Assembly (NCBI GenBank): GCA_964016885.1
Contig: OZ024740.1
Location: forward strand, 165,292,001-165,356,000
Length of the DNA stretch: 64,000 nt
Direction: 5' to 3'
From: Eledone cirrhosa
Taxonomy: Eukaryota
In this document: positions 1,111 to 49,291 of the stretch, piece by piece
Position numbering within the stretch: the stretch's first letter is position 1
How the letters are laid out: each line of letters begins with the position of its first letter
Notes under the pieces: model-generated
Told to the model about the DNA's origin: nothing
Seen by the model: only the letters and a program-made list of their open reading frames with translations
Database searches by the model: none
Position numbers and translations under genes: made by a program

Positions 1111-1981
1111 GTTTATCCAAATTTATCCTGTTTGCTGTCTGCTTTTCGCGGATTATCGAGCGCTCTTTGGATTTTAGTCTTCAAATTTATTATTATTAGT
1201 ATATATATATATATATATATATATATATATATATAATAAATTAACTCTGCCATTCAATTCCTTAGTAGTAATAAGTGTAAAAACTCCTGATATTACAACA
1301 GAAGTCTGAACTTAGTCCGACTGATCCCTATTTTTCTGTCTAAGAACATACTTTATATACCGAAAAGGTGTCTTTACATAACGTGTTGAAACAAATCTGT
1401 GCTTATATTCTATAGAATATAGAGAATAACACCTAAATTGAGTCGTTAACAACATTGATGTTCGAATATCGTAGGTCTCAACAAACCTTCCAAATTCTAT
1501 ATAGCTCAATGTTTGTCCCTACATAAACCTATCATCAATGCTGTATTATTGTCGTTGTAGTTCTTATTTAAGTCGTGGTTGGTTTTTTTTTTTTTTTTTT
1601 GAAACAATAATATAAATTTATCTGCTAAATATAGTAGAAAAATCTCCCTCATATTTTATGCTACCATCTTATAATGTCCAGGGTATATAATTCCTGTAGG
1701 GCAAAATAATCCTCGGGATAGTCATAATGGAAATAACTATCAAGCAAAACATCTGGTTAAACAACACTAAGAACAAAAACAAGAACAACAATATATATAT
1801 ATATATATATTTATATATATATATATATAGTTATACTTTGGGAGGGTCATGTTGCCAATAAGAAACACACGCACCAGTTGCTTTCACTTCAATTTATTAT
1901 AATAAATTTATAATAAATTTATAAATTTATAAATTTCTGGTTGGTTGGTTGGTTCCACAACCAGATAGTTGTTTATATATT

Positions 1982-2024
1982 GTCATAGTTCTTTCGTCAC
2001 ACACTATGTGACCTATTCAGTAAC
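1982..2024 (-). ncRNA. Minimal type I hammerhead motif in PLE terminal repeat, core mutated (CUGAAUA)
   Basis: Minus strand: GTTA CTGAATA G GTCACA tagtg TGTGAC GAAA GAAC TA TGAC. Confidence 0.6.
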
Positions 2025-2365
2025 TGGGATTCCTTTCTTTGTTTCTGTGCCTCTCCTTTGTTCTGACCTACGCCATTTTGTTTCTGTGTGTGTGTTGTGT
2101 GCTCAGTCTGCGCATGCGCCACATCCGTGTGTCTGTGTGTGTTTATGTTCATTTATTTATTTGTTTATTTACATGTTACTGGTTGGTTGTTTGTTCTATG
2201 TGTGTGTGTCTTTTCATTTTGTCCTTAATTGTAAGTTGTGATGTTGCTGTTCCACTCATATTTTCTATTTAATTTTGGTTGTAATTCTTTTATCTTTATT
2301 GCCTCTGTAATTTGTCTAAACATTGCGTCTTTTCTGTGTGTAGATTCTATTTTTATTTCTATGTT

Positions 2366-4654
2366 CTATAATTTACCCCTGTGTTCTATTTTAGAATGTT
2401 GGTAGAGTACAGATGATTCTTTACTATCTTGAAGGTCTTGCCAGTGTTCATTTATCCGTTCCCCTACACTACGAGCTGTCTCACCTATGTACACTATATT
2501 TTTGTCTCTACATTGTCCTTCAGTACATCTTATGCTATACACTACATTTCTAGTTTTACAGTTAATATGGGGGCTTATTTTACAGGTTATACATTTCTTA
2601 TCTATACATGAGGGTCTTTGAAAAGGGTATGTCTTGCTAATAAGTGTTTTTACAGAGGTACCTGGTCTTTCTACTATCTTAATATTGAGTTTATGTTTAT
2701 TTAGGGCCCTTCTAAATTTGTAAGCTAATTCACCTCTAGGGGTTGTATCGATGAACATTACACTCTGGTATTTATTGCTATCATACCATGAGTTTATTCT
2801 ATTAGCCTTGTTCCTAGTTCTTTCTATTCTATTCCAAAATTTGCTCCTATACAAGAGGCAGGTCCCATTTATGTCATTATTTACCATTTTTTCCCATTTG
2901 GTTCTGGCTCCTCTATACACTCTGATTTTATCTCTCTGATTGTAGCCAGAGAACTGCATACGGTGGATGAAGTGTTGTATGTGTCTCTCTAGTTCTTCTG
3001 GGTTGCACATGCGGGACACGTTTCTCATCACCCGTACCAAATCCGCAATCAGTATGTTGATTTTTGTATAGTCCGAAACGGCCGAGTTTCGGTGGATCAG
3101 ATGTTTGGAAGTCATGGGTTTGGCATAATGGGAATGGAGGATTTGTTTTTTGTTATTCATGGTATCTAACCAGAGCTCTGTGTCTAGTACAGGTAATCGA
3201 TGGTTGGGGTGTTTACTTGGGTAGTCTATAGTAACTCCAATGCTCTGGTGGATGGAGTTAGCTATTTGCTGGATGCTTTCCATTGTGTTTTTCTCTAGTT
3301 CCTGACTGTTCTCTAGTGGGGATGTCTTAACTACGATGTTTATATCATCAAAGTAGCGGGAGTACATCATCAGGGTTAAGGGGTCTTCTAATTGTTCTTT
3401 AAGCTTAAGTTTAAGTCTACTGTCCCACCATACCATGAATAAGTTAGCTATGTCGCCTGCAATGCTAACACCAATGGCTGCTCCTTCCTCTTGGGCATAT
3501 GTTTTTCCATTAAATTTTAACATATGTTCCTTAAGGGTTACTTTTATGCTGGCCCCTACCGCATGTGCAATCATTTTCTTCAGTTCATCGTGGTTTTCGG
3601 ATGTCCCTATGGCTCTGGTCCACCCGTTCCATCTATCTGTGTGGGTTTTCTTGGCCATTGAGGTAATGGTAGGTGGTCTGCCTCTTGCTGGTCTTGTAGG
3701 GCGCAGGTTGCTAAGGTCATATGTGTCTAGGTAATTATTACTGTAGGTAAGTTTAAGTAGGAGTCCCAGCTCACTGGTATCAATCCCACGGAACTCAACA
3801 TTGCTCTCACTGATCATTTCTACGCATTTCTCCACAGCAAAATCCACGTCAATAGATAGATAGAGGGACACAACATCCATACTCATTATTATGCAGTTTG
3901 TTAGATCCCTAGATCGGTTACTCACGCCGATTCTGCTGAGGAGGTCCTCCGTGCTGTCACATACATCTGGGGACATTTCAATGATGGGGCGTATGATCAG
4001 GGAGAGGAAGTAGGACAGTCTGTAGTTACTAGCAATATTAGCTCCACAGACTGGCCGTGTTGGTGGTCCCGCGACAGGGTCACTGCCCGTTTTATGGTCT
4101 TTTCGAAGCCCATACAACGCCGGCACGTCATTGTTCCAGGCCTGGAAGTTGTTGGCAGTACTTTTGTTGGGCTGCATTATATTCGTCCACATCACCATAT
4201 GGGCATTGAGGGCTTTTTCTCTATCCTCATGCTCCTGTGGTGTTACCTCTCTTGTGTTAGTGATGTGGGGTTGCATTGCCTGGATGTAGTTTGGCAGGCT
4301 GTCAACCGACATTCTGCCAGACTTGTCTGTTGGAAAGCATGCTATCTCTCCATTACGCGAGCGCTGCATGACCTTACGCAAGCCATTTGCAGATTTTTCT
4401 CCCAGTTGCTGGGCCTCCATTCTATTATGCTTCTTGCTATACTGTTCTATATTTCTAAGTTCGGATCTAGCTATACTAAATTGTGCTTCTGTTTGTTCAT
4501 CGACCTGCGACGGCAATTGCGTGCGTTTGTTAAATGGTAAAGTCGTGGCGTGGACTCGTCGCAGGTCGAACGATTTATCGGAGGGATTATAAAAAGTAGA
4601 GTTCCAGGCTGCTGCTTTATGTGTACTAGTGCTATTGTTATTGTTAGTTGTGTT
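2366..4654 (-). pseudogene. PLE RT-GIY-YIG ORF, open but defective (YFDD in place of YVDD; premature TAG in the endonuclease)
   Basis: DKSGR, LYGLRKDHK, TRPV, MDVVSLY, GAAIG..IANLFM, SRYFDD, LPVLD, then CIDKKCITC and NVVYSIRC..YIGETARSVGERINEH. Confidence 0.93.
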
Positions 4655-46932: not shown

Positions 46933-48593
46933 TAAGACCAGTACGAAGACATACCAGGAGCACTCGTTTTCTTGGAGGGACCTCGCCTCCTAGCAACAAA
47001 TGTATTCCTTGCATATCATAGCTTTAGCCCTAAGTTACCCTTCCACTGTCTAATTTATTGTTTTGGCCTACGTAGCATTTAACTCTGTAATTCATCCATT
47101 TCAATTTCTTAGCTTTCAGGACCTTTCTAACTGCAAAGTTTTTTTTTTTATTACTTTCTATATTTTCTTCCTTCCCTTATATATTACAACCCTTTTTGTC
47201 GCTGTTCTATCTCCTTCCTTTATATCAGTTACTTTTGGGTCTTTTTTTCCCAGCACAGATTGAAAAGTTGGTCCAGCCAACGAAATGCATGTTCCTAGTA
47301 TGTTTTCATTGTATTACTGGTCTTCATTAGAATATAATCAAACTCGCCTCATGGGCTTCAGTTGCACTCCGCCTAGCATATCTCTACAAAGTTTTTACTA
47401 TATATGTGTGTGTGTGCATGCTTCCCTTTTATTTTAAAATACACTTTATCAAGTAATCACACAGCTCCCTGTTGCTCCAAATTTATATATATATATATAT
47501 GAGAGAGAATGTGTGTGTGTGTGTGTGTGTGTGTGTGTGTGTGTGTGTGTGTGTGTGTGTGTGTGTGTGTGTGTGTGTGTGTGTGTGTGTGTGTGTGTGT
47601 GTGTGTGCGTGTGTGTGTGCGTGTGTGTGTGTGTATGAGTTGGAGACAGAGAGAGAAAGAGAAAATTGGAGAAAAGTGAACACATATATTGAAGAAATTA
47701 TATTTAGAATGTGACCTCAGTTGTAAGACTTGGAATGGAATATAAAGTTTTGTTTTTGTTTGTTAGTTTGTGTTCGTCGTGTATTTTGTTTTCCCTTTTC
47801 TACCTTTGAAGTATTATTATCATTTGAGAAGAACTGGTTTCGCTTTCAAATTGTCATTGCTGATGACAGATTTGACAGTATGAGGAAAGACGTTGGTTGT
47901 TAGGATAAAGGAAGGTAGGGAGATGGTATAAAGCCCTTCTCCATCCCGCTTTACACGCGACGTCAGTCAAAGAGAAAAAGACTTTGCTTTTTTTGACGAA
48001 CTGAAAGAAAATCTGCGGGAACGCTTTACAATGGTCTTGTTAATGATAGTCTTGTTTGGCAGTCGGACTTCACTGTAGCGACAGATATGTCGGCATGGAC
48101 AGACAGAGAGAGAGAGAGAGAGAGAGCGGATAACAAATAAAGAGAGGGACAGATGAAAAGATATGGGGGCAGAAACTAAATAGAGACAAAGAAAGAGACA
48201 ACCAGTCGGAAAACATACAGGCATGTATTCAGACATGAAGAGAGATATAAAAGTGGAAGTGTGAAAGTTGATTGAAAGCTGGTGGTGAAAAGGCATATGC
48301 GTGTGTCTATGTGTGTGTATATTTTTGTGCGTATATACGTGAGCATGAATGTTTATATGTTTGATGTTAAGATGAAAAGATATTTGTGTATGTGTGATAA
48401 AAAGATAAAAATATATAACGGAATAGCAATGAATGTTTCACAAGTAAAGCTCATTGTGGGATGCAAAATAGAGAAACATCGAGTTTTATATACCTTCACC
48501 ACATTCAATCTGCATCTACACACCTTTGAGAGAGAATACCTGTCTGTCTGTTATTCTGCCTGTCTGTCTAATGTGGATTGCTGTTATATTATT

Positions 48594-48806
48594 ATTATCT
48601 AGATAAGGTGGTGGATTGGCAGTATCGGTAGAGGGTCGGACGACATGCTTTGACACATAGAGTTACGGCCCATGCCATTCTGAGTTCAAATCCCGCCGAG
48701 GTTAACTTTGCCTTTCATCCTTACGGGGTCGATAAAATAAAGTACCAGTAATGCACTGGTAATTGCTGGCCTTGTGCCAAATGTAGAAACAATTATCTAG
48801 ATAAGG
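48594..48806 (+). mobile_element. Full-length SINE with 15-bp TSD attatctagataagg (48594-48608 / 48792-48806)
   Basis: A and B boxes, family body, exact direct repeats. Confidence 0.93.
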
Positions 48807-49121
48807 GATCGTTATCTATGACCCGTGTAATATCTTTCCTCATAAGTTTAACTCTGTATGGTTAAAAGTTGTTCTATAATAAAAATAAAATTAAATACTC
48901 CACCTCCCCCCGCACCACCAACACACACATTTGTTTCTCGTGTGGTTAAACATGAGTTTTGAAATTTATATCTGTTCCTTCCTCTTTTAAACGAGGTTTT
49001 AGAAAGGTATTAGCAGCGGAACCCCCAGGTCTACGCATTGGTAAAAATAAATGAACATATATATATATATATATATATATATATATGTTCATTTATTATA
49101 TGAACATATATATATATATAT

Positions 49122-49291
49122 ATGTTCATTTTATTAAGGCTGAATAGTGAGTCTTATTACTCTGGAGTTTTCACCTGTTTATCACAGTCACCAGACAAGA
49201 ACAACTGTTGTTCTTGTCTAATGCCCCTGTGATAAACAGGCAAAATACCAGTGCAACAAGACTCACTATTCAGCTTTAATAAAATGAATAT
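49122..49291. repeat. 170-bp imperfect palindrome made of two head-to-head decayed HHR units
   Basis: Centre agacaagaacaac-t-gttgttcttgtct; outer arms ttcattttattaaggctgaatagtgagtctt / aagactcactattcagctttaataaaatgaa. Confidence 0.85.

Follow-up and report, generated by a model that had tools for sequence, protein, structure and literature searches.

Head-to-head insertions of Penelope-like elements and retrozymes in Eledone cirrhosa combine two fixed 3' start sites

The window analyzed here is a 64,000-nt stretch of the 3.0-Gb genome of Eledone cirrhosa (GenBank assembly GCA_964016885.1, contig OZ024740.1, forward-strand positions 165,292,001 to 165,356,000), which is dense in (TA)n runs and other microsatellites. 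It holds six inverted pairs of Penelope-like elements (PLEs) and of other hammerhead-bearing units, some of them retrozymes without an open reading frame (ORF). A sequence-only reading had placed six such pairs at these sites, and comparison of the window with itself recovers all of them, each with its 3' ends outward and its outer ends in or beside (TA)n, as had been claimed (Table 1). Pair 6, which that reading delimited as 49122-49291, is present, with a right arm that runs about 59 nt beyond the palindrome to 49347. The two arms are 97.8% identical in pair 1, 91.9% in pair 2, 95.2% in pair 3, 98.3% in pair 5 and 86.7% in pair 6, while the matching blocks of pair 4 are 94-95% alike. In every family the 3' ends fall at two fixed start sites, A and B, separated by 55-110 nt, and the stretch between them is the PLE tail. 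All six pairs, and a seventh one at 12327-12588, consist of one A end and one B end.

Table 1. Arms of the inverted pairs and other features of the window
Feature	Position	Strand	Remarks
Pair 1, left arm: 5'-truncated PLE (reverse transcriptase and GIY-YIG)	1830-4654	-	site A, tailless, into (TA)n; hammerhead 2020
Pair 1, right arm: same PLE family	4655-7753	+	broken ORF; hammerhead 7504; 59-nt tail 7695-7753 (site B), into (TA)n
Pair 2, left arm: ORF-less hammerhead unit of ~425 bp (retrozyme)	24623-25192	-	site A; hammerhead 24882
Pair 2, right arm	25193-25821	+	site B, ~57-nt tail; hammerhead core 25521
Pair 3, left arm: 3' end of second PLE family	33604-33888	-	site B, ~110-nt tail
Pair 3, right arm	33889-34077	+	site A
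Pair 4, left arm: third PLE family	38260-40087	-	ORF remnant 39709-40107; site B, ~88-nt tail; hammerhead partly deleted
Pair 4, right arm	40088-40588	+	~1.5-kb internal deletion; site A; hammerhead core mutated
Pair 5, left arm: ORF-less hammerhead unit of ~536 bp (retrozyme)	41553-42194	-	site B, ~83-nt tail
Pair 5, right arm	42178-42648	+	hammerhead 42355; site A
Pair 6, left arm: decayed hammerhead unit	49122-49205	-	site A
Pair 6, right arm: decayed hammerhead	49206-49347	+	site B, ~59-nt tail past the palindrome
Additional family-2 pair, absent from the earlier reading	12327-12588		12327-12365 (-) tail-only, site B; 12365-12588 (+) tailless, site A
Unpaired hammerhead-bearing or PLE-like element	13086-13442	-
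Unpaired hammerhead-bearing or PLE-like element	15132-17275	+
Unpaired hammerhead-bearing or PLE-like element	26160-26411	+
Unpaired hammerhead-bearing or PLE-like element	34400-35228	+
Unpaired hammerhead-bearing or PLE-like element	38075-38250	-
Local inverted duplication of unique DNA	12103-12326 / 14161-14392, also 12772-12810		between (TA)n runs; not an element

Judged from sequence features, pairs 1, 3 and 4 appear to belong to PLE families with a GIY-YIG ORF, pairs 2 and 5 to be retrozymes and pair 6 to represent a short hammerhead family. Pair 1 carries a 779-aa open frame (2366-4705) matching the Pfam models RVT_1 (E 5e-4) and GIY-YIG (E 1e-3), both under the curated cut-offs. The family has a reverse transcriptase followed by a C-terminal GIY-YIG domain in one ORF and a pseudo-long terminal repeat (pLTR) with a hammerhead, the layout of endonuclease-bearing PLEs; a C-x4-C-xx-C linker ahead of the GIY-YIG domain suggests the Neptune/Nematis type as characterized in the open-access literature. 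At loci L048 and L211 its pLTR is followed by tail sequence that continues into the element, a partial tandem architecture in which the tail is identical with the 5' beginning of the element. The right arm of pair 1 exceeds the left by 223 bp at its 5' end (4655-4877), and natural copies reach ~1.2 kb further 5'. The ORF remnants of pairs 3 and 4 bear by eye what we take to be the PLE endonuclease motif, and the ORF pieces of pair 4 gave no match in Pfam. The ORF-less units of pairs 2 and 5 each hold one type I hammerhead and form arrays of up to 5 units. One such array, L108 (contig positions 19314253-19317568), has five alternating units, of which the second and fourth are identical over 232 nt, suggesting a dimeric template or a duplicated two-unit block.

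Hammerheads were scored with a sequence descriptor that found 0 matches in 10 block shuffles. In pair 1 the ribozyme at 7504 (+) is intact and that at 2020 (-) has one core change; in pair 2 the one at 24882 (-) matches the descriptor and the one at 25521 (+) has an intact core with a failing stem I; in pair 5 the one at 42355 (+) matches with a long loop III. For pairs 4 and 6, the window holds decayed ribozymes and relatives carry intact ones (L181 for pair 4; L163 and L165 for pair 6). Pair 3 yielded no type I hammerhead by descriptor or by folding, its core words lying 90 nt apart with stems I and III unformed, and its polarity is set by a GIY-YIG ORF remnant upstream in relatives, read from the DNA by eye. 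The earlier attribution of a hammerhead to each pair thus holds for pairs 1, 2 and 5 in the window and for 4 and 6 through their relatives, and is unconfirmed for pair 3. An Rfam scan gave no hammerhead family among the 150 listed of 198 matches, which were mostly microRNA models placed on (TA)n.

The orientation of the arms was followed along the contig with family 1, that of pair 1, located by exact matching of a 22-letter 3' motif (28,723 matches in the genome); pairs were counted over the initial 19-37 Mb of one contig and in best-hit sets. Neighbors at most 8 kb apart among the first 100 matches (19 Mb) comprise 28 divergent, 2 convergent and 2 tandem pairs, and 28 divergent pairs were reached in none of 100,000 strand shuffles. 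The divergent polarity proposed from the window is therefore far above chance on these 19 Mb, and convergent pairs do not equal divergent ones. Forty-four copies appeared single: 14 have a readable inverted partner, 3 more have a partner with a lost or unseen end, 26 are unpaired, and one proved to be the distal end of a pair already among the 28. Altogether, 45/71 family-1 insertions (about 63%) are head-to-head. Family 2 (9,756 matches) gave 6 close divergent pairs, no convergent ones and 16 tandem neighbors among its first 100. The head-to-head polarity of PLEs is not new, having been published before (PMC3846280; PMC8557442).

The composition of the pairs is more tightly constrained than their polarity would demand. 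In family 1 the tail lies on exactly one arm in 27 of the 28 pairs, the 28th (L055/L211) being A/B by its outer ends, and all 14 further pairs readable among the apparent singles are A/B as well, two of them carrying a variant tail scored by eye; this amounts to 42/42 in 19 Mb. The best-hit set contributes 11 A/B pairs out of 12, with the exception inside a duplication that mirrors its flank. Neighbors between 18.9 and 37 Mb include 14 A/B, 2 B/B and 3 A/A combinations; 13 of the 14 A/B ones were fetched and are all contiguous, and the five others resolve on inspection into one true B/B pair, one with an outer end unseen, two that are separate insertions and one mirrored. Over the whole genome, family 1 has 13,652 ends at A and 12,083 continuations to B. 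Families 2-6, read by eye at 20-25 loci each plus the window (with flanks limited to 1.5 kb in family 4), supply 11, 5, 4, 9 and 12 A/B pairs (41 in total) and none that is clearly A/A or B/B, once unreadable or atypical loci are left out (7 in family 2, 1 in family 3, 1 in family 5 and 2 in family 6). Two independent primings, as implied by the sequence-only reading, are excluded because they predict at most 50% mixed pairs against the 42/42 found. A literature search of open-access text, with figures and preprint supplements outside its reach, returned no statement of strict A/B coupling and no application of twin priming to PLEs.

Which arm bears the tail is independent of arm length: in family 1 it is the longer arm in 10 pairs, the shorter in 13 and one of two equal arms in 3, with 2 pairs left out. 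At L023, L085, L232, L234, L235, L103, L110 and L150 the B arm is tail only (5-54 nt) and has no sequence in common with its partner. Directly beyond 8 of the 9 start sites examined stand TA-like letters, which could pair with the nicked end of a (TA)n run. Minimal insertions of ~25-45 bp (L208, L210, L205) are also seen, consisting of a 4-13 nt inverted tail and a 20-31 nt pLTR end inside (TA)n, and they escape repeat annotation.

The two arms share subfamily alleles at 151/193 sites (78%), versus 11.6 +/- 6.1% for random re-pairing. Since this goes well beyond random re-pairing, the two arms of a pair are, on their alleles, from one source. The 41 resolved junctions comprise 4 blunt, 9 overlapping and 28 with extra letters, the last being an upper bound, as microhomology was measured by exact extension, a noisy procedure in which private mutations inflate apparent insertions. 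Overlaps are 0-5 nt, or there is templated filler, and several fillers are copied from nearby element sequence. Overlaps and fillers are what end joining is expected to leave. The junction of pair 1 is a short palindrome of 20 nt, and short palindromes likewise occur at L053 and L058.

We favor, at a probability of roughly 0.58, the reading that an inverted pair is one insertion event, made by coupled twin priming at two fixed sites of the RNA and completed by end joining. On this reading, nicks made by the Penelope endonuclease in the two strands of a (TA)n run would leave two free target ends, and reverse transcription would start from these in a coupled fashion, at A from one end and at B from the other, probably with a single RNA molecule as template. 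The B-primed copy would pass A by strand displacement, giving overlapping arms of up to 2.8 kb, and host repair would end-join the two truncated cDNAs; the ORF-less retrozymes would use the PLE protein. The sequence-only reading had both cDNAs primed at the 3' end of the element RNA: the ends do look primed, yet each arm starts from its own fixed internal site, one arm at A and the other at B. Its proposal that the cDNAs are joined at their truncated 5' ends is supported, and the same A/B pattern in the retrozyme families bears out its suggestion that ORF-less hammerhead units take the same route as PLEs. A wider generalization, which we offer only tentatively, is that fixed-site twin priming is the default integration mode of PLEs, with an enzyme dimer priming one site per target strand and copying one RNA twice, and that unrelated ORF-less retrozymes each evolved their own A/B pair; if true, this alone would explain the head-to-head polarity, the one-sided tail and the mobility of retrozymes.

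Several observations weigh against coupled twin priming. No inverted partner accompanies 26/71 family-1 insertions, one true B/B pair exists (L205), and in 7/16 inverted loci of family 2 one end either cannot be read or lies away from both sites. In family 3, the letters after site A are TCTA rather than a clean TA run. Of 28 testable pairs, only 13 have the partner arm as the nearest copy, and later gene conversion could be an alternative cause of the shared alleles. A register test on multi-unit retrozyme arms, bearing on one versus two RNAs, gave no consistent pattern; overlapping arms of kilobase length would need long strand displacement; and target-site duplications are unreadable, as both unit ends lie inside (TA)n. 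Finally, the in vitro study of the green anole PLE Poseidon (Frangieh 2024, PMC11167929), in its open-access text, reports no coupling between the two target strands.

The strand displacement would be unnecessary if one asymmetric protein dimer held two RNAs of the same source, with one subunit on A and the other on B. This arrangement, which we regard as unlikely while taking it as the foremost rival, accounts for one tail per pair as well as for the long overlapping arms; the lizard PLE protein is predicted to dimerize in the text of PMC11167929, and dual priming has been proposed for L1 (PMC2837659, as far as its accessible text goes). The predicted dimer is, however, described there as symmetric (PMC11167929), so that the A/B asymmetry needs an extra assumption. 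Furthermore, no pair joins clearly different subfamilies, a point of little weight where a single source locus prevails in a cell.

The common source of the arms is also accounted for by a self-primed hairpin intermediate from which the endonuclease trims one strand at A upon integration, a possibility built on Arkhipova 2013 and Craig 2021 as their open-access texts present it. A randomly trimmed strand would leave one tail on either arm, and the short palindromes at the junctions of pair 1, L053 and L058 are in its favor. Against this, only 9/41 junctions show overlap, 4 being blunt and up to 28 having extra letters; the scheme is contrived for ~30-bp insertions whose arms share no sequence; and in vitro it is reverse transcriptase start sites that mark the tail, not trimming (PMC11167929, open-access text). 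We consider it improbable. If priming were single and the cDNA then folded back on itself, divergent polarity and identical arms would result, but this model is rejected in its simple form because the tail also sits on the shorter arm (13/23 unequal pairs), where a copy could not hold a tail absent from its template, including arms of 26-58 bp unlikely to have been flipped by recombination, and because tail-only B arms share nothing with their partners; we give it hardly any credence. Assembly or library chimeras, or later inverted duplications at the DNA level, are just as implausible despite three mirrored-flank cases (L048, L209 and window 12103/14392) and the absence of a bridging read or contig for the junctions of pairs 1 and 3, the two tested, among those listed from short-read, repeat-fragmented data, since the arms differ by 2-13%, end at two distinct fixed points of the element and lie in unrelated flanking DNA, and the mirrored cases are exactly those that break the A/B rule.

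The unit itself is a familiar one. Arkhipova 2013 (PMC3846280) describes head-to-head as the most frequent PLE arrangement, in which one of the inverted pLTRs may carry a tail, and puts forward self-priming on an antisense template as the mechanism; Craig 2021 (PMC8557442) reports an inverted truncated copy, a one-sided tail and a preference for microsatellites, and calls the mechanism an open question; and Schostak 2008 (PMC2377424) and a transposable-element curation guide (PMC8969392) give the same architecture. To go by the accessible text of this work, the inverted, 5'-truncated head-to-head copy with a tail at one end is common to the published units and to those here. Published tails are 30-40 nt long (PMC3846280, PMC8557442, PMC2377424, same limit), whereas those here are 55-110 nt, and one tail per pair is here near-strict, counted, independent of arm length and sometimes the whole arm, in which the PLE papers, over the same text, differ. 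They explain the unit by antisense self-priming or endonuclease resolution rather than by coupled priming. For Poseidon, the available text of Frangieh 2024 (PMC11167929) reports that both target strands are cut and extended, that targets are AT-rich and that two internal reverse transcriptase start sites bracket the tail; it contains no tie to inverted pairs and no report of one site per strand. Two simple models are ruled out by the near-strict A/B coupling across six families, which also yields a sharp prediction for this in vitro system. The A/B rule, which holds whatever the arm length and extends to retrozymes, brings the open question of how PLEs insert into sharper focus.

Twin priming occurs in a minority of L1 insertions, versus about 63% head-to-head for family 1 here. 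As defined along with dual priming by Meyer 2010 (PMC2837659, in its accessible text), it resembles the present case in that a second nick primes internally, the inverted fragments are joined 5' to 5' and the first arm can be very short. The internal site in L1 is variable and a deletion is left, whereas here the site is fixed and the arms usually overlap (PMC2837659, same text). The two non-overlapping fragments of the L1 type, with an internal deletion between them, are matched by the tail-only pairs here, not by the overlapping majority; the tail-only B arms and the ~30-bp insertions have the geometry of L1 twin priming as that text gives it (PMC2837659).

Retrozymes have been linked to PLEs by hammerhead type, co-occurrence and phylogeny (PMC7229834; Li 2026, bioRxiv 10.64898/2026.07.22.740005). 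The units here, ORF-less, in tandem, 425-536 bp long and with one type I hammerhead each, resemble the metazoan non-LTR (long terminal repeat) retrozymes of these papers, for which dependence on PLEs is proposed in the text available. Inverted pairs and tails are absent from that text in both papers (PMC7229834; Li 2026), whereas the units here carry the PLE integration signature, which provides direct structural evidence for insertion of ORF-less retrozymes by PLE protein. With over 28,000 3' ends in one family alone, such pairs are also of practical concern, as they can be mistaken for terminal-inverted-repeat transposons or hairpin RNA genes.

Elsewhere in the window, the hammerhead elements at 13339 (-), 17184 (+, with a 12-bp stem I), 26315 (+) and 38142 (-) stand without an inverted partner next to them. 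The copies at 7504 (+) and 13339 (-) face each other 5.6 kb apart and are 88-90% alike; they are separate insertions. The possible convergent pair at 12159/14171 proposed earlier is locally duplicated unique DNA instead of a hammerhead element, its segment 12165-12312 having local copies only, plus one 44-nt match in 3 Gb. Inverted duplications of unique flank at (TA)n runs are also seen at L048, L209, L074 and L208, and some mirror an element together with kilobases of flank; these (TA)n-anchored duplications are a separate, DNA-level process. The (TA)n runs are hot spots at which different PLE and retrozyme families adjoin (e.g., L037, L041, L044, L218).

Direct repeats 517 bp apart at 14374-15017, with a hammerhead core word and a diverged copy at 8052-8509, probably make up another retrozyme-like unit, and short imperfect palindromes with TA-rich bounds at 25832-25956 and 35852-36048 are probably head-to-head insertions of other families. 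Decayed ORFs of several kinds of non-LTR retrotransposons occupy 17900-22300, 36500-38070 and 53600-61700. At 9797-11839, tandem repeats of 18 and 30 bp form a 2-kb array with long open frames that is probably non-coding.

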